From a virus (Duplodnaviria > Caudoviricetes), in IMG/VR virus record IMGVR_UViG_3300025012_000225, positions 1 to 31,683 of that record: a stretch of 31,683 bases of DNA. One strand, given 5' to 3'. A program made the position numbers and the translations under genes. Under the pieces are notes generated by a model. It was given only the letters and a program-made list of their open reading frames with translations, searched no databases and was not told the DNA's origin. Shown here one piece after another: positions 5,234-28,975 of this stretch (position 1 is its first letter; each line of letters starts with the position of its first letter).

Positions 5234-5277
5234 ACTATATATAGTGGTAATTCATTTTAATAACTACAATATGTAGT
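5234..5277. promoter_or_regulatory. Tandem NrdR-like boxes
   Basis: ACTATATATAGT (5234) and ACAATATGTAGT (5266), 32 bp apart; matches the NrdR box consensus and tandem spacing. Confidence 0.6.
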
Positions 5278-5286
5278 AAAATATCA

Positions 5287-5308
5287 GCATGAAATCGCAG
5301 ATTTGTTA
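5287..5308. repeat. Putative recombination core site (AAA-N6-TTTTGTCA family)
   Basis: GCATGAAA tcgcag ATTTGTTA. Confidence 0.5.
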
Positions 5309-5338
5309 TGATTTTTAAAAAAGAAGGGAGATAAAAGT

Positions 5339-6611
5339 TTGGAATTAATTTATAAAACAGACAATGGTAAACTTGTTCAAGGTGATAATATTGAAGTAAT
5401 GGAGAAAATTAAAGATAATACATATGATAGTTGTATTTCTGATTTTCCTTATGATTTAAAATTTATGGGTAAGAAATGGGATAATACAGGAGATTTTTAT
5501 AAATGGTGTAATAAAAGAGCAATTGGTTTATATAGAATAATTAAACCAGGAGGTTATGTTTGTATATTTGGACATCCTTAGGATGAAATGTGCCTTTGAA
5601 GATGTTGGATTTCAAATAGTAGAAGAAATTGAATATTTATATGGTACAGGATTTCCTAAAAACCAAGATATAGGAAAATTGTTTGATAAGAAAGCAGGTA
5701 AAGATAAAGAAAGAAAAATTGTTGGGAAAAATGATAGCAAGGGTATTAGAAGTGGTGATAATAATTTTGTTGGAGATAATTATAAATGTGATGGGTATAA
5801 TATTACTGAACCTTCAACAGAACAAGCAAAGCAATGGAATGGATGGAAGACATCAGGTTTAAAGCCAGCACATGAATCTATTACAATTTTTCAAAAACCA
5901 TTAGAAGGTACATATATTAATAATATAAGTATACATAATTGTGGTGCAATGAATATTGATGCTTGTAGAATACCTACTTCACAAGATGATAAAGATATTA
6001 TCAATGCAAAAGCATCTAAAAATCCAACAACTAATTATTCAGATAATGAAAATAAAATATATGGTGCGTATGCAGAAGATAAGTCAATGCCAGCAAATGA
6101 GATAGGAAGATTCCCTGCTAATATTATTCTTGATTCTTCTATGGGAGAAATATTAGATAGTCAAAGTGGAGAAATTAAAAAAGGTCAACCAGCAGGTACA
6201 GATTGGAAAAGTGGGAATATTAATCATGAACGCAATGGTGGTAGAAAAGCACAAGAAAAAGATATACCTGCAAGTGAAGGTGGAGCAAGTAGGTATTTCT
6301 TAAAGATTAATACAGATGACTTTGTACCATTTTATTATTGTGGAAAAGCAACCAAGAAAGAAAAAGGCGAAGGTAATACTCATGTCACAGTTAAACCTAA
6401 ACAATTAATTAAATGGTTGATAAAATTAGTTACTCCTATTGATGGTAAAACAATTGATGTAACCGCTGGAAGTGGAACACACGGATTAAGTTGTGAGGAA
6501 TTAAACAAAGATGAAGGATATAATTTAAAATGGATTAATATTGAGTTATTAAATACAGACAAAGAACCTTATTGTGAAATTGCAAAAAATAGGATTAAAA
6601 GTGTAATATAA
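5339..6611 (+). pseudogene. N6A/N4C DNA methyltransferase split by a frameshift near 5579
   Basis: N-terminal part (SDFPY, KPGG) stops at FGHP*; the rest continues in another frame as RMKCAFEDVGF...GFPK...LKPAHE...GRFPAN...HVTVKP...DVTAGSGTHG. Confidence 0.85.
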
Positions 6612-6629
6612 AATACAAATATAATATTT

Positions 6630-6651
6630 GAATAAAACTACTGTTTTGTCA
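6630..6651. repeat. Putative recombination core site
   Basis: GAATAAAA ctactg TTTTGTCA, starting 19 nt after the MTase stop. Confidence 0.55.
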
Positions 6652-6787
6652 CAATATAGGTAAAATTACGCAAAATCGTAATATATTTGATTTTACCTAT
6701 ATTAATGTCAATAAACCCTTGATATATAAGGATTAGAGAGCATTTATATGTGTAAAATAAAAGTATAATATAAATATTGTGACGAAA
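6644..6787. mobile_element. 144-bp non-coding element with terminal inverted repeats (MITE-like or empty cassette)
   Basis: TTTTGTCACAATAT...ATATTGTGACGAAA (13/14 inverted); internal 14-bp hairpin arms 6653-6666/6690-6703; AAACCCTT motif at 6713. Confidence 0.5.
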
Positions 6788-6801
6788 GAAAGATTTTGTC
6801 A
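6780..6801. repeat. Putative recombination core site
   Basis: TGACGAAA gaaaga TTTTGTCA, the most symmetric copy (7/8 arms). Confidence 0.6.
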
Positions 6802-6858
6802 TGAAATAGGTATGATTTATACAATATCGTATTTTAATATATTAATATTGATAATAAT

Positions 6859-7218
6859 ATGAAAGGTAAAATAATAATGATAAGTTATTCATTATGGCAA
6901 TATCATAAAAAAGAAGATGGAACAGTAGTTCAAACACCAGTAGCAATAAATTTTGGAGATAAAAAATCATGTCCTAAGTGTAATAAGTATTTTTTAATTG
7001 AAGAAGGAAATATAATGCGTTGTGCTGGATGTTATTATTTAACTTGTTATATATCTAATAACGACAATAAAAATAAAAAAATAGATAAAATTAAAAATTG
7101 TTTTTATATTCCTATTAATTTAGTAGAAGAAGGTAATAATTGGTTTGAAGTAAAATATGAATTACATAGTGCAAAAGAAATTTATATTTTAAAAGATAAA
7201 ATAAAAAGTATGTTATAA
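6859..7218 (+). CDS. Hypothetical zinc-ribbon protein
   Basis: CPKC...CAGC; the true start may be a downstream ATG. Confidence 0.65.
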   Translation: MKGKIIMISYSLWQYHKKEDGTVVQTPVAINFGDKKSCPKCNKYFLIEEGNIMRCAGCYYLTCYISNNDNKNKKIDKIKNCFYIPINLVEEGNNWFEVKYELHSAKEIYILKDKIKSML

Positions 7219-7275
7219 GTATTTACTAAAGAAAAATTTAATTATTAAATTTAAATAAGAAGGATGTGAATATAC

Positions 7276-7815
7276 ATACATAGTCAATTTTTATTCACTA
7301 AAGATAAATATAATAAGGTATATGATTATTTATCTAATAATATATTATACAAACCAAACATACAACAATTATTCTTACAATGTGAAAAATACGGTGATGT
7401 ATATTTAATTGGAGGAGCAATAAAAGATATTGCTTTCTTTAATAGAAAACCAAAAGATTATGATATTATTATTAAATCATCAAATAAAATTGAATTAAAT
7501 TTACCAGATTGTTTTAAAATAAATCTAAATAGTTTTGGAGGATATAAAATATTTTATAAAGAGATTATATTTGATGTATGGAATTGTAAAGATGAACAAG
7601 ATATTTTTAATACAAGTATTAAATTTAATATTGATGGACTATATATAAATTTAACTAAGAATTATTATAAAGATAAATTATTTAATCAAGCAATTATTGA
7701 AGGTACTGTTATATTTATTAATAATAAAAATATGCATCCAGTAGAAGGTATGGATTATAAAAGAGGATTAAAATTGGCAAATGATTTTGGATTGAAATAT
7801 AAATATAAAGAGTAA
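7276..7815 (+). CDS. Poly(A) polymerase/CCA-adding-enzyme head-like nucleotidyltransferase (179 aa, ATA start)
   Basis: Open frame 7270-7815 with VYLIGGAIKD...KPKDYDII, NSFGGYK, FDVW, FNIDG; SD AAGGATGTG upstream; absent from the ORF track. Confidence 0.8.
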   Translation: MHSQFLFTKDKYNKVYDYLSNNILYKPNIQQLFLQCEKYGDVYLIGGAIKDIAFFNRKPKDYDIIIKSSNKIELNLPDCFKINLNSFGGYKIFYKEIIFDVWNCKDEQDIFNTSIKFNIDGLYINLTKNYYKDKLFNQAIIEGTVIFINNKNMHPVEGMDYKRGLKLANDFGLKYKYKE

Positions 7816-7853
7816 ATATAAAGAATAAATATAAATAAAGGAGAGAATTTAAT

Positions 7854-8021
7854 ATGGTAATGAAACCAGAAGAATTTGATAGTTTATATTTATCATTTTT
7901 AAATGGCAATGAATTATCCAGAGAAGAAATTAAAAACTTATTTGATACTTTCGGAGAATTAATAAATGAGTATAAACGATTATTAGAAGAATGTAAAAAA
8001 TTATCAGCAAATAATTTATAA
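7854..8021 (+). CDS. Small hypothetical protein (55 aa)
   Basis: SD AAGGAG; MVMKPEEFDSLYL...SANNL*. Confidence 0.7.
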   Translation: MVMKPEEFDSLYLSFLNGNELSREEIKNLFDTFGELINEYKRLLEECKKLSANNL

Positions 8022-8029
8022 TAATATAA

Positions 8030-8072
8030 ACTATATGTAGTATTAAGAAAATAAACATACATTACATATAGT
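8030..8072. promoter_or_regulatory. Tandem NrdR-like boxes
   Basis: ACTATATGTAGT (8030) and ATTACATATAGT (8061), 31 bp apart. Confidence 0.55.
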
Positions 8073-8082
8073 AATAAAATTA

Positions 8083-8104
8083 AGAACAATTTCCTCTTTG
8101 GTTT
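8083..8104. repeat. Degenerate putative core site
   Basis: AGAACAAT ttcctc TTTGGTTT; same 58-bp offset from the first NrdR-like box as the 5287 site. Confidence 0.35.
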
Positions 8105-8125
8105 TAATATTTTAGGAAAGGAGAA

Positions 8126-8362
8126 TTGTATATGAAAGATATACGTTGCATATTAGGAATTCATGATTGGAAATATGAAGCAACGGCAATTCGTAGTTGT
8201 GGTTCTGAATTAGAAAAACATTATCGCTGTTTAAGATGTGGAGAAAGATTATATATGGGTTGCGATACGAGTCCTGAAGGATGTAAATATTTTAAATTTC
8301 CTAAGTGTATTTATGTTACTGAAGAAAATCCTGAATGTTATAGAATGAGAAAGAAAAAGTAA
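8126..8362 (+). CDS. Small Cys/His-rich phage protein
   Basis: SD AAGGAG; RCILGIHDW...RCLRCG. Confidence 0.7.
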   Translation: MYMKDIRCILGIHDWKYEATAIRSCGSELEKHYRCLRCGERLYMGCDTSPEGCKYFKFPKCIYVTEENPECYRMRKKK

Positions 8363-8395
8363 AATAAAAATAATTATTTTAAAAAGGAGTAAAAT

Positions 8396-8614
8396 ATGTC
8401 TTGTGAAATTTGTAAAAAGTTAGAATTTATCAATAAAGAATATCCAGATGATTTAACAATGGAATATATAAAACATATTAATAATACTATAGATGAAGAA
8501 AAGATTAAACAAGGATATATTAATTATTTGATTAAGTGTGGATTTACACCTGAAGAATATATGAAAGAATATTATAAGAATGAAAAAATAATAGTTGACA
8601 GAATGGTAAAATAA
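8396..8614 (+). CDS. Hypothetical protein
   Basis: SD AAGGAG, ATG start. Confidence 0.7.
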   Translation: MSCEICKKLEFINKEYPDDLTMEYIKHINNTIDEEKIKQGYINYLIKCGFTPEEYMKEYYKNEKIIVDRMVK

Positions 8615-8624
8615 ATGTTATAAT
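8595..8624 (+). promoter_or_regulatory. SigA-type promoter of the ligase-macro-PARP operon
   Basis: TTGACA-18-TATAAT with extended TG; near-identical to the promoter at 11881. Confidence 0.8.
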
Positions 8625-8814
8625 ACGTTAGGGTTAAGAATTAGAAAATTATTAAAAGGAGGTTAAACATATAAAAGAATGTTGTGCAAATTGTCATTGG
8701 TTTTTAGATGAAGTATTAGAAGAATGTGATGGTTTGGATGATATATACAATGATAAATGTCATGAATATTCAGAAGGTAGATATATAAAGGAAGAATTGA
8801 AGGAGGTTACATAT

Positions 8815-10143: not shown

Positions 10144-10171
10144 AATAAACAAATTAAAAGGAGGAAATATT

Positions 10172-10591
10172 ATGATTATTAAAGAAGAACAAAGAGATTT
10201 ATTTTCAGTACCACATGGTTATTATTTTGCACATTGTATTTCAGGTGATTTTGCTTTAGGTGCAGGAATAGCAGTTAAATTCAATGAGTTATATAATATG
10301 CGTAAAAAGTTAAAAGAAGTTGCAGAATATAAATCTGATAATTGTGCAATTCTTATTGATAATGTATTTAATCTTGTGACTAAAAGAAGAGCATTTCATA
10401 AACCTACATATGATAGTTTAAATGAAGCATTGGTAGATATGATGGAGCAAGTTATTAGTTTAGGAGTAGAAAAAATTGCGATTCCATTGATCGGATGCGG
10501 TTTGGACAGATTAGATTGGAGCATTGTTAAGGAAATAATTGAAGAAGTTTTTGAGGATGTTGATGTTGAAATTCTAGTTTGTTATTTATAA
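10172..10591 (+). CDS. Macrodomain ADP-ribose glycohydrolase (TARG1/OARD1/DarG-like class)
   Basis: DLF...AHCISGDFALGAGIAVKF...NLVTK...IAIPLIGCGLDRLDW; SD AAGGAGG. Confidence 0.9.
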   Translation: MIIKEEQRDLFSVPHGYYFAHCISGDFALGAGIAVKFNELYNMRKKLKEVAEYKSDNCAILIDNVFNLVTKRRAFHKPTYDSLNEALVDMMEQVISLGVEKIAIPLIGCGLDRLDWSIVKEIIEEVFEDVDVEILVCYL

Positions 10592-10604
10592 GAGAGGTGG
10601 ATAT

Positions 10605-11834
10605 ATGCAAAATCCATTGTATTTAGTTAAAGTAGAACCAGGAGAGAATAATAATAAATATTACCAGATGTTGGATAAAGGAGATGGTTACTTTATATGT
10701 AAATATGGTAGGATAGGTAATTCAGGATATCAAACAAAAACTTATCCTATATTTAAATGGGAATCTCAGTATAAAAGTAAAATAAAAAAGGGTTATGTGG
10801 ACAATAGTAGATTAGTTGCAGAAACTATTATCCCTCAAAATAAAAAGAAAGAATACCTTGATATTATTATTCCTTCAATCGCACAAATTGTAATAAGATT
10901 ACAATCAATGGCACGACAAGCAATTAAAGATAATTATACAATATCTTCTAATAAAGTTACACAACAAATGATTGACGAAGCACAATTAATTTTAAATAAT
11001 TTAATTGATACAGATGATATTGAATTATTTAATAAGATATTAGTTGATTTATTTAAAACTATTCCTAGAAAAATGGGAAAAGTTAAAGATTACTTAGCAA
11101 AAGATGATAAAGATTTTAGTGAGATTATTCAAAGAGAGCAAGATTTACTTGATGTAATGAAAGGGCAGGTGGTACAGCATTCAATAGTCAAAGATGAAAA
11201 TAATGAAAATGATACATATGAAATGCCAAATCAAACAATATTAGAAGTCTTAGGATTGCAATTTGAAGAAATTAATCAGGAAGAAAAAGAATTAATCAAG
11301 AAAAATCTTGGTGGTATTAGTGATAAGTTTTATCAAGCATGGAAAGTAATTAACATTAAGACACAAAAGAAATTTGATGAATTTACACAGAGCAATAATA
11401 TAAATAATATGAAGTTATTATGGCATGGCAGTAAATCAGAGAATTTCTGGTCAATTATTAATATGGGTCTAGCACTTAGACCTCCAGCAGTAATCACAGG
11501 TAAATTATATGGGAATGGTATTTACTTTGCTCCAAAAGCTAGAAAAAGTTTAGGATATACATCTTTAAATGGAAGTTATTGGGTTAAAGGTAATAGTAAT
11601 TCAGGATTTATGGCATTATTTAATGTTGCTTATGGTAAACCTTATGATGTTTATACATTTGATAGTAAATATCATAATTTAAACTATGAAAACTTACAAA
11701 TAATGTGTCCTGGTAGTAATTGTTTACATGCACATGCAGGTGCAAATATTGGTTATTCAACATTAAAGAATGATGAAATAATAGTATATAAAGAAGAACA
11801 ATGTACTATAAAATATTTAATTGAATTGAGGTAG
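10605..11834 (+). CDS. WGR-domain PARP-like ADP-ribosyltransferase
   Basis: WGR domain (NNNKYY...YGRIG), helical region (FKTIPR), catalytic LLWHGS / GNGIYFA / KSLGY / NDEIIVY giving an H-Y-E triad. Confidence 0.9.
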   Translation: MQNPLYLVKVEPGENNNKYYQMLDKGDGYFICKYGRIGNSGYQTKTYPIFKWESQYKSKIKKGYVDNSRLVAETIIPQNKKKEYLDIIIPSIAQIVIRLQSMARQAIKDNYTISSNKVTQQMIDEAQLILNNLIDTDDIELFNKILVDLFKTIPRKMGKVKDYLAKDDKDFSEIIQREQDLLDVMKGQVVQHSIVKDENNENDTYEMPNQTILEVLGLQFEEINQEEKELIKKNLGGISDKFYQAWKVINIKTQKKFDEFTQSNNINNMKLLWHGSKSENFWSIINMGLALRPPAVITGKLYGNGIYFAPKARKSLGYTSLNGSYWVKGNSNSGFMALFNVAYGKPYDVYTFDSKYHNLNYENLQIMCPGSNCLHAHAGANIGYSTLKNDEIIVYKEEQCTIKYLIELR

Positions 11835-11880
11835 TTATTAATTTCTGTCAAGGGAAAAATAAAAATAAATAAAATTTCTC

Positions 11881-11910
11881 TTGACAGAATGATAATATAA
11901 ATGTTATAAT
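11881..11910 (+). promoter_or_regulatory. SigA-type promoter of the replication operon
   Basis: TTGACA-18-TATAAT with extended TG. Confidence 0.8.
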
Positions 11911-13679: not shown

Positions 13680-14819
13680 ATGACAAGAAGAAAAGTAGGT
13701 AAAAGAAAAGAAGTCAAAATTGATTTTGCTAATTATAGTTATTTATTAGATGGAATCGCCGGGATCGGGAAAACGACTTTAGCATATGAAGTTGGTAAAA
13801 CTCTTTACGGTGAAGATGGAATAATGATTTTAACTGTAGGTCAAGAACCTGAACCAGATCATTTAGGAGGAGTTTTATCTGATAGAGCAGGAACATGGGA
13901 AGATTTAACAGAAATGGTTGATGATCTAGTTGCATATAGAAATGAAGATTATAAAAATTTAAAAATGATTGCAATAGATACTGTAGATGAATTATTTAGA
14001 CTTGCAGAAGAAGAAGTAGTAGAGATATATAATGCTTCTGTTATACCAGAGAAAAGAGTAAAATCAATTAAACAAGCATATGGTGGGTTTCAGGGAGGAG
14101 AAAATAAAGTAGTAGATTTAGTTATTTCTACTGTATTTAAGTTAAGAGATGCTAAATATGGTATTTTCTTTATTGGTCATACAAAACAAAAAAATAAAAA
14201 AGATCTTATGACTGATATTGAATATGAACAACTTACCTCAAATTTAGAAGCTAAATACTATAATGCAATTAAAGATAAAGTAAATATTGTTGCTTGTGCA
14301 TACATAGAAAGAGAAATGAATGATATTGAAACAGTTAAGGATGCATTTAGCAAGAAAAATAAACAAGTAGGTAGAATTGCTTCTGAACGTAGAGTGATTG
14401 TATTTAGAGATGAAGAATATGCAATTGATGTAAAATCACATTTTATTGATATTGAACCTAAAATTGAATTTGATACAAATATTTTTATTGATACTATTCT
14501 TGTTGCAATTAAAAAACAACATGAAAAATATCATGGTAAGACTTCTGATAAAGAATTAAAACAAATAAAAGAAAAGCAAGAAACTGAACGTATAAATGAA
14601 GCAGAAGAAAAGGTACAAGAAATTAGAGAAGATTTAGATAATATATCAGATGAAGAGAAAAATAAAGAATTAGTTAAGAAAATTACTAGTCATTATAAAA
14701 CTGCCAATCCTGAACAAAAAAAATCAGTGAAAGATATATTAGAAAAAAATGGTACATCAAAATTTGATCTTGCCTTACCAACAAGAGTATTTGAAGAAAT
14801 ATTACATATTTTTGAATAA
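13680..14819 (+). CDS. AAA/P-loop ATPase (Sak4/AAA_24-like)
   Basis: Walker A GIAGIGKTT, Walker B IAIDTVD, FIGH motif. Confidence 0.8.
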   Translation: MTRRKVGKRKEVKIDFANYSYLLDGIAGIGKTTLAYEVGKTLYGEDGIMILTVGQEPEPDHLGGVLSDRAGTWEDLTEMVDDLVAYRNEDYKNLKMIAIDTVDELFRLAEEEVVEIYNASVIPEKRVKSIKQAYGGFQGGENKVVDLVISTVFKLRDAKYGIFFIGHTKQKNKKDLMTDIEYEQLTSNLEAKYYNAIKDKVNIVACAYIEREMNDIETVKDAFSKKNKQVGRIASERRVIVFRDEEYAIDVKSHFIDIEPKIEFDTNIFIDTILVAIKKQHEKYHGKTSDKELKQIKEKQETERINEAEEKVQEIREDLDNISDEEKNKELVKKITSHYKTANPEQKKSVKDILEKNGTSKFDLALPTRVFEEILHIFE

Positions 14820-17997: not shown

Positions 17998-18800
17998 TAT
18001 TGAGTAAAATAATATATAGCTTTAGTAGATTAGATAGTTTTCATAATTGTAAAAGAAGTTATTTTTATACATATGTTCTTGGACAAAGAGGTGGTGAAAA
18101 CATATATAGTTTTTTAGGTACTATATGCCATGAATTAACTCAAGGGATAATTGAGAATAAAGAAACAAATGAAGGTGCTGTAGAAAAATTTACTCAAGCA
18201 GTAGATGATGCTGATATGCTTGGATTAGAATGGATTAGTGAAAAAGTTAAAAATAATTATAAAGAATGTATTACACATTTTTTTGAAAATTATATTTCCG
18301 AAGCAATAAAAGATTTTAAGATTGAAGAATACTTTGAAGTGAATGTAAATGGAGTTATGATGAAAGGATATATTGATTTATGGTATTTTAAAGATGGGAA
18401 AATACATATATGTGATTTAAAAACAAGTAGTAAATATAGTAAGAAAGATTTACTTAAAAAACAAAGACAATTATATTTATATGCATATGCTTTAAGTAAA
18501 CAATATCCAAATATGAAGATTAATTTATATTTTAATATGTTAAAGTACGTAATTCAAAATAATAAATTAGTTGAAAGAAATAAATGTAGTATATTTGAGG
18601 ATTACTCAGATGGATTAGTAATAATAAAATATGATGATGATATTGCTAAAAAAGATATTGAAGATTATGTGACAAATACAGTAGATGAAATTGAATTGTT
18701 GGATAAAGATATTATATTTTGGAATAAAAATTATAATGCTGAAAAAGATTTCTTTTGTGTTAATTTATGTAGTTTTAGAGATAAGTGTTTAATTGAATAA
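17988..18800 (+). CDS. PD-(D/E)XK nuclease (RecB/Cas4-like exonuclease)
   Basis: YSFSRL...C, GTICH, GYIDL, ICDLKT, QLYLY, C-terminal Cys cluster; likely start TTG 18000. Confidence 0.85.
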   Translation: MGVILSKIIYSFSRLDSFHNCKRSYFYTYVLGQRGGENIYSFLGTICHELTQGIIENKETNEGAVEKFTQAVDDADMLGLEWISEKVKNNYKECITHFFENYISEAIKDFKIEEYFEVNVNGVMMKGYIDLWYFKDGKIHICDLKTSSKYSKKDLLKKQRQLYLYAYALSKQYPNMKINLYFNMLKYVIQNNKLVERNKCSIFEDYSDGLVIIKYDDDIAKKDIEDYVTNTVDEIELLDKDIIFWNKNYNAEKDFFCVNLCSFRDKCLIE

Positions 18801-18819
18801 AATAATAAGGAGGAATAAT

Positions 18820-20037
18820 ATGCAATATTGTAGTATATGTGGTGTATCAGAATTAAATACATCAAGATTTAATAAAAATAGTAAATATGGGAAAAATTTA
18901 TGTAACAAGCATTATTTGCAAATAAAGAATCATGGTAAAATAATTGATTCTTCACAACCGGATATAAATGATAAGAGAATATATTGGAAACCAGAAGAAG
19001 AAAATAAATTAATAGAATTAGTAGAAAAAATAATTCCATATAAAGAGATTGCAGAAATATTACATAAAAGTGTTACATCAATTAATAGTAAAGTAAATCA
19101 AATGGGAATAAAAACAAAATATAAAAATAGCAATAAATTTAAAGCTATATATCAAGATTATAATTGGTGTTATCAAAAATATATGGTTGAAGGTTTAAGT
19201 CATAAAGAAATGGCAAAAGAAGCAAAATGTACAAAAAGAGTGATTGAAAAATGGTGTACCGAAATACATAGAATAACTCAAGAATATAGACAAGTTAATA
19301 AGCAATTAAATGAAAAACAAAAAGATTTAATTATTGGTTCAATGTTAGGGGATGGTCATATTGATAAGAGAGAAGATCAACCTATATTTATAGAATCACA
19401 TGCAGAAAATCAAAAAGATTATTTATATTATAAATATAATAATCTTAAGGAATTCTGTAATATTTCTCCTGTTAGGAAAGAAGCATGTTATAGAGAATTT
19501 AATGGTAAAATGTATTTATGTCAACCACAATATAGATTATCTACAAGAATACATGATTGTTTATTAGAATATAGAGGAAAATCATATACATATTTATTAA
19601 ATTTAATGAATAAATTTTCATTTTCAATTTGGATGTTAGATGATGGTTATAGAGATAAGTCTAATTGGGAATTATGTGTTGCAGAATATACTCAAGATGA
19701 TATTGATTATGCTATAAATATTTTTAAAGAAAAATTTGAATTAATTTGCTGGCAAGAAAAAGATATTAGATATTTACGATTTGATGCTCCATCTTCTAGA
19801 AAAATAGATAAAATTATATTAAATAATATTCCTAATGATTTAGATATTATTAAATATAAAATAACAGAAAATAAAAATATTTATGGAGAAGAAAAAAAAA
19901 TTTATATTAAATATAAAAATGAAGAAATATTATTTACAGATTTATGTAAAAAATATAATTTAGATTACAAAAGTACATGGCAAAGAGTATTTAAAAATAA
20001 TGAAAATATCAGTAATATAATAGGTATATGCCAATGA
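18820..20037 (+). CDS. Free-standing LAGLIDADG homing endonuclease with N-terminal Cys/HTH modules
   Basis: IIGSMLGDGHI and SIWMLDDG motifs; SD AGGAGG before ATG 18820. Confidence 0.85.
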   Translation: MQYCSICGVSELNTSRFNKNSKYGKNLCNKHYLQIKNHGKIIDSSQPDINDKRIYWKPEEENKLIELVEKIIPYKEIAEILHKSVTSINSKVNQMGIKTKYKNSNKFKAIYQDYNWCYQKYMVEGLSHKEMAKEAKCTKRVIEKWCTEIHRITQEYRQVNKQLNEKQKDLIIGSMLGDGHIDKREDQPIFIESHAENQKDYLYYKYNNLKEFCNISPVRKEACYREFNGKMYLCQPQYRLSTRIHDCLLEYRGKSYTYLLNLMNKFSFSIWMLDDGYRDKSNWELCVAEYTQDDIDYAINIFKEKFELICWQEKDIRYLRFDAPSSRKIDKIILNNIPNDLDIIKYKITENKNIYGEEKKIYIKYKNEEILFTDLCKKYNLDYKSTWQRVFKNNENISNIIGICQ

Positions 20038-23000
20038 AAAAAATTATTGAAAAAATTATTCCTAAATTAAAATTTAAATTCCCATATACTATTGAAGATT
20101 ATTCAGAAAATTTATATTGTGAAAATTACCATAAGCATTCATTTTTTAGTAATACCTCAGTAGCAGATAGTCCTGAATCTATGAAAACATATGCACAACA
20201 AACTATTGAATATAAAGGAAAATGTTTATTTAGTGGTGAGCATGGGAATCAAGGGAATCAATTTGAAGTTTATAAATTAGCAGAAGAATATAATTTAAAA
20301 TATAGACATTCAGTTGAAGCATATTGGGTAAAAGATAGATTAAAAGAATATCCTGAAATTGATAAAGAAACTGGAGAATATAAAATAGATACAAAAACAG
20401 GAGAAATTAAAACATATAAAGATAAAACAAATTGTCATATATGTCTTACAGCTAAAAATCCTGAAGGGAGAGAAGATATTAACTATATTCTCTCTCTGGC
20501 TAATATTGATGGTTATTATTATAAACCAAGAATTGATTTAGAATTATTATTAAATATTCCAAAAGATAATATTATAATCACTTCTGCTTGTTTTGAAAAA
20601 GATACTAAAGTATTAACAAAAAACGAAATTAAAAATATTCAAGATGTAAGATCAGGTGATTTTGTTCTTACACATAAAGGAACTTGGGAAAAAGTTATTG
20701 TACCAACAAAAAGAGAATATAATGGTGAAATGTATAATTTGTTTATTGAAGGTTGTTTTGAAAGTATAAAATGTACTAAAGATCATAAATTTCCAACAAT
20801 AAATAAAACACATTCAGATGTAACGAAAAAAATAATTTGGAAAAAAGCAAGTGAATTAACAACAGAAGATAGAATATTAAGTGCAATAGATGGGACTATA
20901 GAAATTACAGAGCATATCGATGTTGATTTAATTTTAAATAACTATAGAGAAAATTGTAATTTAGGTAGACCATTAAAATCTCCTATTATAAAATCTAAAA
21001 TAGAAGTAGATAATTTATTTCTACAAATATTAGGTTTATATGTAGCAGAAGGGAATATAAATAAAAAAAATAATTATATTTGTTTTACTATTAATAAAAA
21101 AGAAAATAATTTATATAATTTAATTAATGAATTTAGTTTAAAATATTTAAATAAACCTGCTATTATCCAAGATAAAAAAAATACAAATGGAATGTCTGTT
21201 TTAATTCATAGCAAAGAAATGGCATTATTATTTTCTTATTTAATTCCATCAGGGTCAATTAATAAAAAAACACCTAATTTTATTCTAAGATTACCTCCAT
21301 TTTTACAAATGGAATATATAAAAGGTTTGTTTTTAGGAGATGGACATATTGCTAAAAATTTAAACAGAGTAAATTATGTAACAATATCAGAGCAATTAGC
21401 ATATGAAGTTGGTTATATATTAGAAAGAAATGGTTTAAAAAGTTGTTGTTCGATTAGAAATGAGAAAATAGATAAAAACAATATACATCATAATAAAGTT
21501 TATGTGATTGAGATTAATAATAAAGAATTCTATCAATACTGGAAATTATATTTAGAATCAAACGAAAAATATGATTTTAAACATATAGGATGGAATTCAA
21601 AAAAGCCTGTATACATAGATGGGGTAAATTATATACATAGAAGAGTAAGAAAAATTGAAACATATGATTATAATGATTATGTATATTGTTTAAGTGTAGA
21701 AAATACACCTTCTTTTAGAATAGAAGGAATTTCTGTTCATAATTGTATTGCAGGATGGAAATATGAAGATGCAGAAGATATATGGTTGAAAATACATAAT
21801 TATTTTGGTGATAATTTTTTATTAGAAATACAAAATCATAATACAAAAAGTCAAAAATTATTAAACAAAAAAATCTTAGAAATATCTAAAAAGCATAATA
21901 TTCAAATTATTTGTGGCTTGGATAGTCATTATGTTAAACCAGAGAATACCATTAAAAGAGATCAAATATTAAAATATAAAGGAATTATATATGAAGATGA
22001 AGAAGGATGGTATTTAGATTTTCCAGATGGTAAAGAAATATTTAATAGATTTAAAATCCAAGGTATATTAAATGATGAAGAAATTATAACTTCAATGATG
22101 AATACAAATATATTTATTAATGAATGTGAAGATATAATATTTGATAAACATTTTAAAATACCTTGTTTATATCAAGATAAAACATATGAAGAAAAAGTAA
22201 AGATTTTTAAAAAAATATTAAATGAAAGATATAAAGAAGAAAAATTAAAAACATCTGAAAAAGTAAAAGGAATAAAATATGAAGTAGGAGAGATTGTTGA
22301 TAGTGGAGTTGTAGATTATTTTTTAACAAATGATAAAATTATTAATAAGGCTGTTAATGAAAAAGGTGGTATTTTAACTACAACTTCAAGAGGAAGTTCA
22401 GCATCTTTTATTGTAAATAAATTATTAAGATTTACTACGATTGATAGATTTAATTGTGAAATACCTATTTATCCAGAAAGATTTCTTACAAAAGAAAGAG
22501 TATTAAGTGGGCAAATGCCAGATATTGACTATAATTTAGCTATAGCAGAACCATTTGTAGAAGCTACAAGAGAATTAATAGGGGAACATAGTTGTTATCC
22601 TCTTATGGCAATTGGAAAATTAAAAGAAAAAGCAGCATGGCAATTATATGCAGGGGCAAATGATGTTACACCTGAACATGCAAATGAAATTTCTAAATTC
22701 ATTGATAAATATAATGAAAAAATAAAATATGCAGATGAAATAGATAGAGAATTTATAAATATTGAAGATTTTATTCCAGAAGAATATATAGATATTTATA
22801 AAGGTAGTTTAGAATATCAAGGTATTGTAATAAATTTAAAATGTCATGCTTGTGGATATTTACTTCTAGAAGGAGATATAAGAAGAAAAATTGGTTTAAT
22901 AAATGCAGTATCAGAAACAACAGGAAAACGTACATTATGTGCTTGTATTGAAGGGAATTATCTAGATGAATTTGGTTATGTAAAAAATGATTACCTTATA

Positions 23001-24554
23001 GTTGATAGTGTTCATTTAACTCATAAATTTTTTCAAAGTATTAATAAAGATGTTCCTAGTTTTGATGAATTAAGAGAAATGATTGATGGAGATAAATTAA
23101 CATGGGATATATATGCTAAAGGAATTACTTGTTGTGTAAATCAGGTGGAAAAAGAATCTACAACAAAAAAAGTAAAACAATACAAACCAACAACATTAGC
23201 AGAATCTAGTGCATTTATTGCAGGAATTAGACCAGGATTTAAATCTCTCATCGGAACATTTTTAGCAAGAGAAAAATATACAACAGGAGAAGAAACAGTA
23301 GATAGAATATTAGAAGATAGTTATCATTTCATGTTATATCAAGAATCAATTATGAAATTATTATCATATTTAGGATTAACAATGGGGGAAGCATATGGAG
23401 TTCTTAAAGCAATATCTAAGAAAAAATTAAAAGGAAAACAATTAGATGACCTTCAAAAAAAATTGAAAGAAAATTGGATGAATATAATTGGGAATCTAGA
23501 TAATTTTGAAAAAATATGGAAAGTAATAGAAGCATCTGCTTTTTATGCTTTTAATGCTCCTCATGCTTTATCGATGGGAGGAGATAGTGCTTATCAAGCA
23601 TGGTTTAAAGCACATCATACAGCAAAATTTTATGAAGTAGCAATAAATCATTATCAAGATAAAAATAAAAAAGATAAAATTGATGCTCTTGTAAAAGAAG
23701 CATTATCATTTTATGGTTATAGATTAGGTGATTATGAATTTGGTAAAGATAATAGAAGAGTTAATATTGATGAAAAAAATAAAATTATATATCCTAATCT
23801 ATCTAGCATAAAAGGATTTGGTGAAGGGGTAGTACAAATACTATATGAATTAGGTAGTAATGAATTTAAAAGTTTTGTAGAATTTTTAGATTCATTAAAA
23901 GGTCTTAAAATAAATAAAACTATTATAGATAAATTAGTTAAATTAAATTATTTTAAAAAATTTGGAGAAGTGAATACCTTATTAGAAATTATTAAATGGT
24001 ATGATATATTTAGAGATGCAAAAGAAATTTCAAAATCTAAAATTGAAAATTACGGATTAGATTTAAAATTTGTAATTCAATATGGAAATGAAACTGCAAA
24101 AAAAATCACAAAACTTAAAAGCAAAGAATTATTGCAAGATATAATAAAAAATATAAAAAATATTCCATTAACAGTAAAAGAAATTATAGATAATCAAAAA
24201 GAAATTTTAGGTATTATTACTTATATTGATAAATCATATTCAGATGATATTTATTATGTTTCTAATTTAGAAGTTATGAAATCAATAGTAAAAGTTAATT
24301 TGTATCAAATTAGTAATGGTACTATATTAGAAATTAAATTATGGACTAATCAATATAATAGAAATAACTTTCAACAAAGTGATTTTTTATATGTAAAAAA
24401 CTTTGATATCAAACCACAAAAGTCTCCTACTGGGGAAATTAATTTAGAAACAGGAAAGAAAATTTATAGAGAAGTAGAAGGTACTGAAGAATTTTGGATG
24501 CCAAAATATCAGAATATATCTTATAAATTTCAAAGTGAGGTAGAATATGATTAA
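20028..24554 (+). CDS. dnaE: DNA polymerase III alpha subunit (PHP + polymerase), intein-containing
   Basis: NYHKHS, DSHY, RGSSAS, FLTKER..MPDID, HACG, VKND, YQE, YAFNAPHA, IKGFG. Confidence 0.92.
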   Translation: MPMKKIIEKIIPKLKFKFPYTIEDYSENLYCENYHKHSFFSNTSVADSPESMKTYAQQTIEYKGKCLFSGEHGNQGNQFEVYKLAEEYNLKYRHSVEAYWVKDRLKEYPEIDKETGEYKIDTKTGEIKTYKDKTNCHICLTAKNPEGREDINYILSLANIDGYYYKPRIDLELLLNIPKDNIIITSACFEKDTKVLTKNEIKNIQDVRSGDFVLTHKGTWEKVIVPTKREYNGEMYNLFIEGCFESIKCTKDHKFPTINKTHSDVTKKIIWKKASELTTEDRILSAIDGTIEITEHIDVDLILNNYRENCNLGRPLKSPIIKSKIEVDNLFLQILGLYVAEGNINKKNNYICFTINKKENNLYNLINEFSLKYLNKPAIIQDKKNTNGMSVLIHSKEMALLFSYLIPSGSINKKTPNFILRLPPFLQMEYIKGLFLGDGHIAKNLNRVNYVTISEQLAYEVGYILERNGLKSCCSIRNEKIDKNNIHHNKVYVIEINNKEFYQYWKLYLESNEKYDFKHIGWNSKKPVYIDGVNYIHRRVRKIETYDYNDYVYCLSVENTPSFRIEGISVHNCIAGWKYEDAEDIWLKIHNYFGDNFLLEIQNHNTKSQKLLNKKILEISKKHNIQIICGLDSHYVKPENTIKRDQILKYKGIIYEDEEGWYLDFPDGKEIFNRFKIQGILNDEEIITSMMNTNIFINECEDIIFDKHFKIPCLYQDKTYEEKVKIFKKILNERYKEEKLKTSEKVKGIKYEVGEIVDSGVVDYFLTNDKIINKAVNEKGGILTTTSRGSSASFIVNKLLRFTTIDRFNCEIPIYPERFLTKERVLSGQMPDIDYNLAIAEPFVEATRELIGEHSCYPLMAIGKLKEKAAWQLYAGANDVTPEHANEISKFIDKYNEKIKYADEIDREFINIEDFIPEEYIDIYKGSLEYQGIVINLKCHACGYLLLEGDIRRKIGLINAVSETTGKRTLCACIEGNYLDEFGYVKNDYLIVDSVHLTHKFFQSINKDVPSFDELREMIDGDKLTWDIYAKGITCCVNQVEKESTTKKVKQYKPTTLAESSAFIAGIRPGFKSLIGTFLAREKYTTGEETVDRILEDSYHFMLYQESIMKLLSYLGLTMGEAYGVLKAISKKKLKGKQLDDLQKKLKENWMNIIGNLDNFEKIWKVIEASAFYAFNAPHALSMGGDSAYQAWFKAHHTAKFYEVAINHYQDKNKKDKIDALVKEALSFYGYRLGDYEFGKDNRRVNIDEKNKIIYPNLSSIKGFGEGVVQILYELGSNEFKSFVEFLDSLKGLKINKTIIDKLVKLNYFKKFGEVNTLLEIIKWYDIFRDAKEISKSKIENYGLDLKFVIQYGNETAKKITKLKSKELLQDIIKNIKNIPLTVKEIIDNQKEILGIITYIDKSYSDDIYYVSNLEVMKSIVKVNLYQISNGTILEIKLWTNQYNRNNFQQSDFLYVKNFDIKPQKSPTGEINLETGKKIYREVEGTEEFWMPKYQNISYKFQSEVEYD
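20589..21743 (+). mobile_element. Intein (385 aa) with LAGLIDADG endonuclease in the DnaE PHP domain
   Basis: TSA|CFEKDT, block B CTKDHKF, ILGLYVAEG, YIKGLFLGDG, VYCLSVE, VHN|C. Confidence 0.93.
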
Positions 24555-25080: not shown

Positions 25081-25090
25081 AATAAATAAC

Positions 25091-25119
25091 TTGACATTTA
25101 ATCCATCATCATTTATAAT
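25091..25119 (+). promoter_or_regulatory. SigA-type promoter of the accessory gene array
   Basis: TTGACA-17-TATAAT exact consensus. Confidence 0.85.
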
Positions 25120-25209
25120 ATAAACAGACAGGAAGAGAGTAGATATAATTATAAAATATTTAAAATTCTCTCTCTTCCTTTTAATTAAAGTAAAGGAGAA
25201 AGAATATAA

Positions 25210-25539
25210 ATGCTAGATAAACAAGAATTGATACATAAAATGCAAGAACGTGGATTTACTGTATATGCAAACATAGGAAAAGCAAAAATACAATTTATAT
25301 CTTCTCATATGTATGATATTCATTATAAAGAAAATACATTACCACGAAAAAGAATACCTATAATAAATATAATAGTAGATTTAGAGTATAATGAATTTGA
25401 ATGTATTTACAATATTAACGAAAGTACTAATACTTTAAATACTGGAATATGTGGTTCTATCCTTAATGATAAACATTTTGATAATATTGTTGGTAAATTT
25501 GAATCTCATGCAAAAATATTAGAAAAATATACATTATAA
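25210..25539 (+). CDS. Hypothetical protein
   Basis: SD AAGGAG; 109-aa ORF. Confidence 0.75.
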   Translation: MLDKQELIHKMQERGFTVYANIGKAKIQFISSHMYDIHYKENTLPRKRIPIINIIVDLEYNEFECIYNINESTNTLNTGICGSILNDKHFDNIVGKFESHAKILEKYTL

Positions 25540-25568
25540 TCTAAAATATCAAAAATCCCTAATTCCAC

Positions 25569-25629
25569 AAACCCTTATAAATCAACACTTTCTAATTTCC
25601 AAAATCAACACGAAATCGATGTTTTGTCA
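25569..25629. repeat. Composite site: AAACCCTT palindrome + CAAAATC + core
   Basis: AAACCCTTataaatcAACACTTT...CAAAATC...ACACGAAA tcgatg TTTTGTCA; aligns without gaps to 28915-28975. Confidence 0.7.
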
Positions 25630-25663
25630 CGATTTACCAAAATTTAATAAAAGGAGATTAATT

Positions 25664-25852
25664 ATGAACAAGAGTACTTATTCATTGATTGAAAATAACC
25701 CAGAAGTTACAGAAATATATAATGCACTAGATGAACTTAGAGAAAATAATCATACATTTGGATTTAATGCTTATGATTTATTAGAAAACGCAGAAGAAAT
25801 TTATTATTTGTTAAATATGTTTTTAAAAATTAAGTTAAAGGAGATCAACTAA
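25664..25852 (+). CDS. Hypothetical protein
   Basis: SD AAGGAG before ATG 25664. Confidence 0.7.
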   Translation: MNKSTYSLIENNPEVTEIYNALDELRENNHTFGFNAYDLLENAEEIYYLLNMFLKIKLKEIN

Positions 25853-25853
25853 T

Positions 25854-26276
25854 ATGAAAAATAAAACAATAGAATTCACAGCAATCAATTCTGGAGATTA
25901 TGAATGTTTTTGTTGGGAAGTTGATATAGAAACATTTAAAAGAATAAAAGGTAAAGAACCAGATATATTTGATTATTCCGAAATAGATGATTCAGATTTT
26001 GATAATTATAAACCAATAGGAGATAAGGTTAGATTGTACCCTGATGATATTTTTAGTAAAGATAGTAAAGTTAAAGTTAAAATAGAAATTGAAACATTAG
26101 AAATATATTGCAGAGGTTGTGGTAAAATATTAAAACCTTCAGAATTAAAATCTCATAATAAAGATAAAAGTTTTGATGAATATTTTTGTGACGATTGTTT
26201 AAGTGTTTGTTCAGTATGCGGAAAATTATTTGCTGATTATTATGATACAGGTAAATGTGATAGTTGTGCAGATTAA
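25854..26276 (+). CDS. Hypothetical protein with C-terminal multi-CxxC zinc finger
   Basis: CRGC, CDDC, CSVC, CDSC. Confidence 0.75.
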   Translation: MKNKTIEFTAINSGDYECFCWEVDIETFKRIKGKEPDIFDYSEIDDSDFDNYKPIGDKVRLYPDDIFSKDSKVKVKIEIETLEIYCRGCGKILKPSELKSHNKDKSFDEYFCDDCLSVCSVCGKLFADYYDTGKCDSCAD

Positions 26277-26323
26277 AATTATGAGAAAGATAATTAAAAT
26301 TATAAGGGAGGTAAATAAAAATT

Positions 26324-26581
26324 ATGAAAAATACTACTATCTATGATGATTTAATTGATATTGCATTAGATATTAAAGATAAAGAATGGTTTAATCAATT
26401 AATTAAATTAAAAAGTGAAAAAACTAAAGAAGTAACTTTTATAGAAGCATTAACTGCATGGTCTAATGGAAAGATAATTCAAGGTGTTTTTGGTGATAAA
26501 GTAGTTATAGTAAATAATAATATGGATGAAGTTAGATTAGGAAAGGAATTCATGAAAGGTAAATATTATATACTAGATTAA
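26324..26581 (+). CDS. Small protein with IDEAL-like N-terminus
   Basis: LIDIALDIKDKEWFNQL; SD GGAGGT. Confidence 0.65.
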   Translation: MKNTTIYDDLIDIALDIKDKEWFNQLIKLKSEKTKEVTFIEALTAWSNGKIIQGVFGDKVVIVNNNMDEVRLGKEFMKGKYYILD

Positions 26582-26649
26582 AATAATATAAAGAAGGATA
26601 AACAAATTGTTATAATGGTTAAAGCAGAATATAAAGGAGAATAAATTCA

Positions 26650-26985
26650 TTGGAATATATAAATATTATATATAAAAACTATACTAAAGATCAGGTAAAA
26701 TATTGGATTGAAAAAGAAGGTATATGGTATATTAATAAAAGAATTGATGATAAAGGGTATAGGCTTATATTTTATAGTCATTGCAATGACTATTCTGTTA
26801 GAGATATAGACTGTATATTAGATGAGTATAATGGTGATTATAAAGAAATTACTAATAAGATGCTTAATACAATTAATGCACAACAATATGGGTATCCAAG
26901 AAATAAAATGTACATAAAATTATTAAGAAAAACACCTATGGGTTATTTCCCAATATTTGAAGGATTTGTTCTAGATATATTTTAA
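26650..26985 (+). CDS. Hypothetical protein
   Basis: SD AAGGAG, TTG start. Confidence 0.7.
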   Translation: MEYINIIYKNYTKDQVKYWIEKEGIWYINKRIDDKGYRLIFYSHCNDYSVRDIDCILDEYNGDYKEITNKMLNTINAQQYGYPRNKMYIKLLRKTPMGYFPIFEGFVLDIF

Positions 26986-27015
26986 TAAATCTACATAAGA
27001 AAGAAGGAATTAATC

Positions 27016-27414
27016 ATAAGAAAAATTAAAAGTAGTTTAATAGATGATAAGCACAAAGATGATGAAGAAATAGAAAATGAAAAACAATACATAGAAGACG
27101 AAGATGATTCAAGTAATGAAGATTCTGCAAATAAAAATAATTGTCCAAACTTAATCAGAGAAATAATTAAAAAGACATGGACAGCAAAAGATGGATATGA
27201 AATGTATATGGAGTATCCTAAATACAGTTGTAAAGATATTAAAGAGAAAAGTATGAAAGGGAATATAGGGTGCTGTGGTAATATTAAATGGTGTGATAAA
27301 AAATTAAATAAGGATAAGAAAGATAAAAAAGAAGGAAATGAAAACTATAGTAAGATTGCAACGGAGATTAAGAAGGTTAAAAAGAAACAAAAAGAAAATA
27401 ATAAAGGAGAATAA
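27016..27414 (+). CDS. Hypothetical protein (probable ATA start; track start 27202)
   Basis: Frame open from ATA 27016 behind SD AGAAGGA; acidic N-terminal part, Cys-containing C-terminal part. Confidence 0.55.
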   Translation: MRKIKSSLIDDKHKDDEEIENEKQYIEDEDDSSNEDSANKNNCPNLIREIIKKTWTAKDGYEMYMEYPKYSCKDIKEKSMKGNIGCCGNIKWCDKKLNKDKKDKKEGNENYSKIATEIKKVKKKQKENNKGE

Positions 27415-27421
27415 TATTAAT

Positions 27422-27684
27422 ATGTTTAATATTAATGAAATAAAAAATAAAACAAAAGAAAATGAAATACGTTTTATGGTTAAATTTGAAAATGAAAATA
27501 AAGAATTATTACAAAAAATTAAAAATGTTATTGATGAAGAAGTTAATAATCTAAATAGAGGTGCTTACTAAAAGGATTTGAAACCAATCTATCTACCTAT
27601 AGTTTTTCGATTTATTGGAATGAAAAAGAATTTAATATTGAAGATTACATAAGAGAAATCGTGAATGAATGTATTGATAATTAA
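27422..27684 (+). pseudogene. Probable frameshifted hypothetical gene
   Basis: SD + ATG 27422, stop at 27571; a protein-like frame (LLKGFETNLSTYSFSIYWNE...) continues 27559-27684 without a start codon. Confidence 0.45.
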
Positions 27685-27729
27685 TAAATTGACTATTATT
27701 AGTTGTGAAAATATAAAAGGAGAATAATT

Positions 27730-28038
27730 ATGAAAAAATTTGAAAACTTTAGTTTTACAACAAAACTTACAAATAAAAAATTAACAATTGAAATCCCAAT
27801 TAATATTTTAGTAAAAGCATTTGAACTTTATCCTAATAATTATAATGAATCAAAAGTTAAAAAAGGTAAAAAACAAATGTTTGCTGAATTTGTAGCAAAA
27901 CAAATTATAGAAGAACGTTTAGATAGTGAAACAGGTGATTCTCCAATGTCTAAAGCATTTGATAATGTTTTTGATTTACTATTTGAAGGATATGAAGATG
28001 GAAGAGATTTTATTGATTTTGGTGAAGATTATAAATAA
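27730..28038 (+). CDS. Hypothetical protein
   Basis: SD AAGGAG; 102 aa. Confidence 0.75.
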   Translation: MKKFENFSFTTKLTNKKLTIEIPINILVKAFELYPNNYNESKVKKGKKQMFAEFVAKQIIEERLDSETGDSPMSKAFDNVFDLLFEGYEDGRDFIDFGEDYK

Positions 28039-28056
28039 ACTAAGGAGAATATTTAT

Positions 28057-28497
28057 ATGAAAAAGATTAAAAAATTCCATTATGAGAAACTAAATAGAGG
28101 TGGGTTAAGATTGCCAGATCAAAGTGTTATATGTAAGAAAATAGAAGAAATTATTGATTGTATTAATAATATGAATACTATTGATAAAACTCCTAATACA
28201 ATCAATAATACAAATGATGATACTAATACTATAAAACAAATTGTAGAAAATAGTTTACAAATAATATTTAATGAAATTGATAAAATAAAAAATATTACAT
28301 ATACACAAATTAAACATAGACATTTAGACAATACTTTTGATATTAGGGATGCAATCTCAGATACAAAATTGCATGAGTATTTTAGAAATATTCAAATTCA
28401 TGGAAAACAATATGATGGTGATAAAGTATTAAATGTTATTAAAGATTATATAGATTATGAAATTGAATTATTAGTAGAAAAAGATCAATGGAATTAA
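28057..28497 (+). CDS. Hypothetical protein
   Basis: SD AAGGAG; 146 aa with an N/T-rich linker. Confidence 0.75.
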   Translation: MKKIKKFHYEKLNRGGLRLPDQSVICKKIEEIIDCINNMNTIDKTPNTINNTNDDTNTIKQIVENSLQIIFNEIDKIKNITYTQIKHRHLDNTFDIRDAISDTKLHEYFRNIQIHGKQYDGDKVLNVIKDYIDYEIELLVEKDQWN

Positions 28498-28509
28498 AGG
28501 AGGGCAACC

Positions 28510-28887
28510 ATGTTATACATAACATATTTTCATAAAATAAATCAATTACCAGAAGAAACTAAGAAACTTATAATCACAAGATTTCCTCCAAAATGGTTTG
28601 ATGTAAATAAATATCCTAATACATATATCGTAAAAGAATTAGCACCTTATGCAGAAACACTTTTAGAATATAAAAAAGATAATGATTGGAATAAATATGT
28701 TGAAAGATTTAATAAGCAAATGCAAGAAGATCATATAATGGGATATTATTTAGATAAGTTATATTTAAAATTATCTCAAGGTCATAGCTATGCTTTAATA
28801 TGTTATGAAAAAGATTACATTCATTGTCATAGGTATTTAATAGCAAAATATTTAGAGAGTAAAGGTATTGAGTGGAGAGAAATTTAA
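28510..28887 (+). CDS. DUF488-family protein
   Basis: ELAP...W..Y..RF..QM and LICYEK....CHR motifs. Confidence 0.75.
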   Translation: MLYITYFHKINQLPEETKKLIITRFPPKWFDVNKYPNTYIVKELAPYAETLLEYKKDNDWNKYVERFNKQMQEDHIMGYYLDKLYLKLSQGHSYALICYEKDYIHCHRYLIAKYLESKGIEWREI

Positions 28888-28914
28888 AAAATACGATATA
28901 TTACGTAAAAACGG

Positions 28915-28975
28915 AAACCCTTATAAATAAAGAGTTTGTAGGCATCAAAATCGTGTCCAAACCGACATTTTGTAT
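28915..28975. repeat. Composite site: AAACCCTT palindrome + CAAAATC + core
   Basis: AAACCCTTataaataAAGAGTTT...CAAAATC...TGTCCAAA ccgaca TTTTGTAT. Confidence 0.7.

Follow-up and report, generated by a model that had tools for sequence, protein, structure and literature searches.

Palindromes with individual six-base centres as candidate addressed crossover sites in SPbeta-like phages

The virus record IMGVR_UViG_3300025012_000225 of IMG/VR (positions 1 to 31,683; this whole stretch of 31,683 nucleotides is called the window below) is a 24% G+C fragment of a large temperate phage that is SPbeta-like and probably infects a clostridial host. Short two-armed palindromes around a six-base centre recur at its gene junctions, which raises the question of what such repeats are for. 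An initial annotation had likened them to tyrosine-recombinase sites and had proposed an integron-like system through which single promoterless genes are gained and lost as cassettes. Based on comparison with related phage contigs (labelled G001 etc.; G001 spans 152 kb and is 82% complete, and G001-G005 are fragments of 27-82% completeness), we lean, with some reserve, towards reading the palindromes as tyrosine-recombinase crossover sites that would serve in-register swaps of blocks between related phages at matched centres. The sites are enriched, occupy gene junctions, and have unique, colinear centres that are kept better than the arms; boundaries of exchange fall on them, phased motifs accompany them, and relatives encode an intact Xer-like recombinase.

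All six palindromes listed initially are present, on the plus strand, at 5287..5308 (centre TCGCAG, 5295-5300), 6630..6651 (CTACTG, 6638-6643), 6780..6801 (GAAAGA, 6788-6793), 8083..8104 (TTCCTC, 8091-8096), 25608..25629 (TCGATG, 25616-25621) and 28954..28975 (CCGACA, 28962-28967). The strict form AAA-N6-TTTTGTCA occurs three times in the window against 0.17 in 300 local shuffles, none of which scored as high (0/300); the loose form AAA-N6-TTTTGT alone is not enriched there (6 vs 3.3; 40/300 shuffles), and two of its matches fall in coding DNA. A site matrix was trained on 18 related records with this phage excluded, although its seed pattern came from the window and it is hence not fully independent. 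It assigned 12.3, 14.6, 17.6, 16.5 and 12.5 bits to sites 5287, 6630, 6780, 25608 and 28954, respectively, and returned 5 intergenic matches of at least 11 bits in the window where 0.43 were expected from shuffled intergenic DNA, which bears out the claim of a motif above background. Corresponding counts in relatives were 27 vs 1.7 (G001), 15 vs 1.2 (G004), 13 vs 1.5 (G005) and 21 vs 2.8 (G019), and the late-side fragments G008, G010 and G018 gave 1, 2 and 0 matches. Site 8083 scores 4.3 bits only; because its centre TTCCTC stands between arms in four other phages (G001, G004, G005 and G016), we take this degenerate copy, whose left side is G001-like and whose downstream gene is G004-like, to be genuine by descent. 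The matrix scan found no intergenic site between 8105 and 25607, in agreement with the absence from the replication operon noted initially, and a generic repeat search of the window did not reveal the sites. A second degenerate arm-N6-arm remnant, with the centre ATCGTA, was seen at 6819-6840, between site 6780 and the gene at 6859.

The full site extends over about 12+6+12 bases, (ATCA)TGAYAAAW-N6-WTTKRTCA(TGAT), and both of its arms fit one two-fold symmetric consensus, which in strict extended form has one match in GTDB genomes. Among 179 oriented intergenic sites, the next start codon lies at most 45 bases away in 99, the site stands at the upstream stop in 64, and a promoter is overlapped in 5.

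The centres resemble addresses. This phage (in these counts the window plus its G002 extension, 10 sites) has 6 centres in common with G001 where 0.18 were expected, all of them colinear (6/6), and shared centres likewise keep their order between G004 and G005 (6/6), G004 and G020 (6/6), and G001 and G005 (4/5), with 2 out-of-order shared centres among the pairs listed. No centre is repeated among the 10 of this phage or the 45 of G001, although few repeats were expected anyway (0.02 and 0.39). Since shuffling would scramble unique and colinear centres, integron-like traffic in single promoterless cassettes is not supported by these genomes, and many inter-site intervals contain several genes with promoters of their own. 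At orthologous sites (7 pairs, 5 sites), 42/42 centre positions are identical, compared with 50/70 variable arm positions and 128/168 flank positions, whereas matching centres occur in 12 of 15724 unrelated site pairs. GAAAGA recurs in G001, G004, G005, G007, G016 and G020 with varied arms, six left-arm variants among them, and several downstream flanks; TCGCAG recurs at G001:83227, where both neighbouring genes differ; TCGATG recurs in G001 and G016, with a different next gene in G001; and CCGACA is shared with G001 together with both flanks. When 78 matched pairs at 25 addresses were sorted by their flanks, neither flank was common in 34, the left only in 27, the right only in 9 and both in 8, a count that depends on loose clustering and on addresses preselected as shared, and in which no complete four-way combination was seen.

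Boundaries of exchange coincide with sites in the window itself. Homology to G001 runs through a DNA methylase gene (MTase 2) to 6621, is interrupted by a 5-kb gap, resumes at 6631 and ends at 6799, positions that correspond to sites 6630 and 6780; the initial expectation of breakpoints at sites is borne out here, but does not extend to gene turnover at large, most of which falls at site-free junctions. MTase 2 (5339..6611, plus strand) is the only gene between sites 5287 and 6630, as first described, but it is frameshifted in the window, where PF01555 matches both of its pieces (open reading frames, ORFs, 5339-5581 and 5556-6611); in G001 it forms one frame of 433 amino acids, and a contig of run X6 has 11 bases more than the window near 5578. 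The centres TCGCAG and CTACTG that enclose it differ at 4/6 positions, so that the excised circle 5295-6643 suggested initially would not be expected to form if recombination requires centres to match. Over 4200-7050, the contigs of four runs contained no clean site-to-site joint and one joint 5633-6644 with a 21-base side 85% alike; since rare variants are lost from contigs, this carries no weight as evidence. The 5-kb block of G001 that is absent in the window includes QueC and radical-SAM genes. In G001:83285-87400 (L052), QueD-like, radical-SAM, QueC, DUF6884 and Mom genes lie between the addresses TCGCAG and TAACGG, the slot of MTase 2 here. From these gene contents, DNA-modification systems seem to be exchanged as blocks.

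In an initial pair test, centres matched in 9/13 pairs sharing the left flank only, 4/23 sharing the right only and 7/7 sharing both. The idea that the centre always follows the left flank, as in one-strand exchange, was abandoned because it rested largely on site 6630 (9/23 right-only pairs) and on paralogues, while SPbeta is symmetric.

Sites of this kind are also found in SPbeta and phi3Ts, in which the strict form TAAAA-N6-TTTTA numbers 34 and 30 copies, respectively, with enrichment at the 6-base gap only. These two phages have 21 centres in common, all colinear. Of the 32 ends of identical blocks (at least 300 bases) between them, 6 fall on strict sites where 0.33 were expected, and 9 where 0.72 were expected if at most one mismatch is allowed. 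Where homology turns to unrelated DNA, as judged by eye, 7/8 ends lie on sites whose centre belongs to the shared block, both at block starts and at block ends.

The tyrosine-recombinase character first ascribed to the palindromes appears well founded, given how they look and evolve, their position at gene junctions and their phased accessory motifs, and the accompanying prediction of a recombinase encoded outside the window has gained a candidate. The late-side module of close relatives encodes a 340-amino-acid Xer-like tyrosine recombinase. In G036 a distance of 5.6 kb separates it from a homologue (91%) of window gene 2132, and it shows 28% identity to an SPbeta gene, located near 41 kb, that we take to be yomM. 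The catalytic set R-K-H-R-H/W-Y of this linked enzyme is present in the relatives, with R, H, R, W/H and Y in 45-46 of 46 distinct sequences and K in 44/46. Its nearest solved structures are those of archaeal XerA; it falls under every NCBIfam cut-off, far below those for XerC/D/S/A, and reaches 22 bits vs 265 on the IntI model TIGR02249. One genome, G024 (90% complete), combines the recombinase gene, an MrpR-like gene and 38 sites, and a site follows the recombinase gene in 14/37 loci compared with 44/405 other gene ends. Together, these features point to the Xer-like recombinase as the enzyme that may act on the sites. A separate tyrosine recombinase of 192 amino acids, lacking the core-binding domain but with intact catalytic motifs, is encoded in an accessory region of G019 (74268-74846) and was seen in that record only.

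The initial annotation had also described an accessory motif at a fixed distance upstream of several sites; the phasing is real, but two distinct motifs are involved. Type A, AAACCCTT-N7/8-AAGGGTTT, was identified by sequence match as palindromes at 25569..25591 and 28915..28937, each ending 16 bases before the arm of the following site (25608 and 28954, respectively), and in relatives it stands at exactly 16 bases from the arm in 26/40 left-side and 7/17 right-side cases. Type B, present at 14 sites in 7 records, comprises two boxes about 30-32 bases apart, which lie about 53 (52-54) and 21 (20-23) bases ahead of the arm. In the window, one such pair precedes site 5287 (5234..5277), being placed by the shared phasing, with palindromes that start 53 and 23 bases before the arm, and another, read from the sequence and matching the pair before G001:90023, precedes site 8083 (8030..8074). 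The boxes resemble the NrdR box, as we take its consensus to be. Their spacing, 30-32 bases in all 14 pairs, is that of NrdR boxes, which occur in tandem 31-32 bp apart (PMC2892513). No phage nrdR above cut-off was found in 5 records, and any NrdR at the putative type B boxes would be a host protein. Both motifs presumably bind architectural or regulatory proteins. One address may be preceded by A, by B or by neither, so that the accessory motifs appear to travel with the upstream block. A perfect type A palindrome (AAACCCTT-N8-AAGGGTTT) at 1359-1382, common to G018, adjoins no crossover-like site.

A second protein with a recombinase fold is present in this phage group. MrpR is a repressor of SPbeta with such a fold (PMC10516654), and MrpR-like genes matching SPbeta yopR were identified in G001, G005, G007, G014, G019, G022 and L114 (PF22822); the encoded protein lacks the H-x-x-R motif. 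In SPbeta, the MrpR-bound promoter regions carry ATACA-N7-TGTAT in 7/7 examined (10 named), separate from the TAAAA-N6-TTTTA sites, and this seven-base-gap motif is presumably the SPBRE of MrpR. Directly before the yopQ/mrpR-like operon of G001 (42081-45271; L050:2081-5271), and also in G005 and G019, is an agr-like cluster of a membrane protein, an AgrD-like peptide of 38-41 amino acids, a PemK-domain protein and AgrB, which may constitute an agr-type lysis-lysogeny signal; SPbeta has arbitrium genes in that place. Promoters at 8595-8624, 11881-11910 and 5197-5215 of the window, the last resembling a promoter remnant, share a ACAGAATGATAAAAT-like spacer motif that recurs in many G001 promoters and is a candidate operator of the MrpR-like repressor.

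In the mechanism that we propose, two related phage genomes in one cell would recombine only at equal centres. The phage Xer-like recombinase would join both genomes at one matched centre and resolve them at another, thereby swapping the intervening block. If identity of the centres is required, unlike centres within a genome would guard it against self-deletion, and new addresses and out-of-register gene moves would need some other, rarer route. A wider picture, which we advance more tentatively, is that SPbeta-like phages hold a genome-wide map of 30-50 addressed crossover sites together with their own Xer-like recombinase, through which phages sharing a host might exchange blocks of accessory genes (methylases, base-modification clusters, anti-defence genes) in register and without deleting parts of themselves, at joints gated by accessory boxes, some perhaps read by host NrdR.

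Several observations weigh against matched-centre exchange as the function of the sites. The enzyme is a candidate predicted from sequence, and searches with PF00589 and phrog_1 found no active tyrosine recombinase in the window or in the G001-G005 fragments; among the 87 of 95 G001 ORFs of at least 140 amino acids covered by Pfam, the only recombinases were the MrpR-like protein and a serine recombinase. The enzyme is therefore tied to this exact phage only through the left part of the window and G024. The centre of site 6630 differs in each of four syntenic phages. This site is the left end of an ORF-less unit of 149-150 bases (6644..6793, plus strand) between sites 6630 and 6780, which contains an inverted repeat and a type A motif (6713-6735), has the same length in the window, G001, G004 and G020 and twice in G021, and has unlike left centres in the four syntenic phages. 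MTase 2 and gene 6859 occupy different addresses in different phages, MTase 2 in G001 lying one address earlier, behind GCTGAA. Given these moves and the unlike centres of the 150-base unit, some joins must have been made out of register. Gene order is broken at 63/69 site junctions but also at 411/528 junctions without a site (p=0.007), and for small genes only at 41/44 vs 299/356 (p=0.12), both classes being inflated by ORF-calling noise. Because breakage is common at site-free junctions, the sites appear to bound blocks, with most single-gene turnover using other routes. Between SPbeta and phi3Ts, 23/32 block ends lie off sites. Finally, four laboratory hybrids contain 9 parent switches (five back-and-forth switch pairs of under 100 bases being excluded as artefacts or short tracts), of which 8 are uninformative because they fall within stretches of 1.4-18 kb where the parents are identical, while the remaining one could be narrowed to 39 bases that contain no site.

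These hybrids were attributed by their authors to homologous recombination (bioRxiv 10.1101/2020.05.06.055103), and that route offers another account of the sites themselves, as short conserved boundary sequences for relaxed homologous recombination by a Sak4 annealase, RuvC or host RecA, with arms that bind protein for some other purpose and centres that merely lengthen the homology. A Sak4-like protein and RuvC are encoded in the window, turnover is mostly at site-free junctions, and the one resolved hybrid switch is off-site. We nevertheless consider this account unlikely: homologous recombination should keep the arms as well as the centres, yet the centres are invariant at orthologous sites (42/42) while the arms are not (50/70, with six left-arm variants around GAAAGA), and this route explains neither the strict 6-base gap nor the two-fold symmetry. 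In mycobacteriophages, stoperators lie between a stop codon and the following ribosome-binding site. The sites here have the same position, and they could be operators or stoperator-like transcription roadblocks of an MrpR-like, catalytically dead integrase-fold repressor, genes for which occur in several relatives and whose SPbeta namesake is a repressor of that fold (PMC10516654). This is very improbable, however, as MrpR-bound SPbeta promoters carry a motif with a 7-base rather than a 6-base gap, 10 peaks compare with 34 strict sites, promoter overlap is limited to 5/179 sites, and invariant colinear centres would be unaccounted for.

An integron-like or Tn916-like system, in which genes leave one by one as circles and enter any site whatever its centre, would account for the cassette anatomy at many junctions, for the 150-base element with its unlike centres and two copies in G021, for the genes found behind different addresses, and for the predominance of matched centres among left-only over right-only pairs (9/13 vs 4/23), as one-strand exchange predicts. 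That predominance, however, owes 9/23 right-only pairs to site 6630 alone and several others to paralogues, SPbeta keeps the centre on both sides, and shared centres are in conserved order, with few genes behind different addresses. Integrons comprise IntI, attI and attC, the ends of attC reading RYYYAAC...GTTRRRY; such ends were found at 0/6 sites on either strand, and the candidate enzyme is not an IntI-family integrase (22 vs 265 bits). Coupling sequences of Tn916 are inherited without need for identity, whereas here the centres are identical at orthologous sites (42/42) and on both sides of SPbeta block ends, site 6630 being the exception. Cassette traffic of either type is accordingly improbable, and matched-centre exchange by a tyrosine recombinase is the reading that we retain.

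Beyond the sites, the window encodes two DNA methylases, a ligase, a PARP, the Sak4-like protein, DnaB, PolIII-alpha with an intein, ERCC4 and many small ORFs. The Sak4-like single-strand annealing protein (13680..14819, plus strand) was recognised by AAA_24, and 2/4 phage matches are annotated Sak4-like. A Macro-domain gene lies beside a WGR-PARP gene, after the ligase (10172-11834), an arrangement kept in G001, and the two are a possible phage pair of ADP-ribosylation writer and eraser. The PolIII-alpha region (18793-24554) contains a LAGLIDADG ORF and the intein, whereas the G001 polymerase of 1091 amino acids is intein-free. Another assembly of the window phage has about 65 extra bases near 29237 (L001:14691-14757 vs window 29230-29237), where a window ORF is broken. 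Within the first methylase gene (MTase 1, PF01555; 4420..5196, plus strand) the assembly probably joins two near-identical copies. From 4436 onward the window is matched by G015 at 99.6%, but G015 differs upstream, where it has site GCTGAA and continues into the series of addresses found in G001; G002 starts within MTase 1; and window 1-4400 corresponds to late-side contigs whose similar promoter and methylase precede the recombinase gene. The upstream region occurs in two variants in runs X1 and X3, and in X1 read depth is 49-50 over that of the window, 58 over the alternative and 58 downstream. On these grounds the window is probably a chimera joined across two near-identical copies of MTase 1 (4436-4920), or else a rare recombinant. 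The consensus sigma-A-type promoter at 4342..4370 (plus strand, 12/12 match), from which the cassettes were initially thought to be expressed, has a homologue followed by a methylase and then a tyrosine recombinase gene in L183 and L247. Given the probable join, it should not be read as the promoter of the site array and probably belongs to the late-side context.

A literature search that did not reach most papers behind subscription, among them that on the SPbeta genome of 1999, found none describing these phage sites, and one for yomM likewise gave no result. The sites likely serve matched-centre site-specific exchange rather than forming an integron, with the Xer-like protein as the candidate enzyme. 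The present comparison adds that the phased accessory motifs are of two classes, describes the 150-base unit, sets the sites apart from the MrpR motif and contributes the negative tests on junctions and hybrids. Phage mosaicism is usually ascribed to homologous or illegitimate recombination; dedicated addressed exchange, if true, would be a further engine and would account for the sharp block boundaries among SPbeta-like phages. The idea lends itself to direct tests with the model phages SPbeta and phi3T in laboratory B. subtilis, and a recombinase whose tens of natural centres exclude one another would make a ready multi-site cassette-exchange tool.

The sites share the layout of the pdif (xrs)/dif modules of Acinetobacter, on which XerC/XerD act (PMC11705084, PMC6449649), with many two-armed sites with 6-base centres around accessory genes and unlike centres within a molecule. 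In Acinetobacter plasmids, recombination takes place only between closely related central regions, through cointegration and then resolution (PMC11705084), and the comparative pattern seen here fits such exchange between molecules at matching centres, with site 6630 as the exception. The carrier here, however, is a temperate phage of 130-180 kb whose tens of sites keep a conserved order; a single consensus describes both arms, as for one recombinase instead of XerC plus XerD, and the candidate enzyme is encoded by the phage, although a host enzyme is conceivable. Accessory motifs are phased to the phage sites, whereas none were reported near the tested xrs, and recombination was demonstrated for the plasmids whereas a sequence pattern speaks for it here. 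XerH/difH is similar in its 10-12-base arms around a 6-base centre, with the inner 5 bases read most strictly, but is a single chromosomal site with a fixed centre and FtsK activation (PMC5241119), and the phage enzyme scores far below the Xer cut-offs. With integrons the phages share accessory genes that extend from ribosome-binding site to stop between repeated sites, and a site that often follows the recombinase gene; unlike integrons, they have no attC ends and no IntI, keep the order of their genome-wide sites, and have blocks that are often multi-gene with promoters. The repeated element of MrpR/SPbeta (PMC10516654) belongs to the same phage group and combines a recombinase-fold protein with a repeated intergenic palindrome, but the MrpR-bound promoters carry a motif with a 7-base gap, distinct from the sites described here. 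The PeSL cassettes of T4-type phages (PMC2839356) likewise recur between genes and mark places where non-essential genes are shuffled as modules; they are promoter and terminator repeats that recombine with each other and form mini-circles, whereas the sites described here are not promoters and have individual centres.

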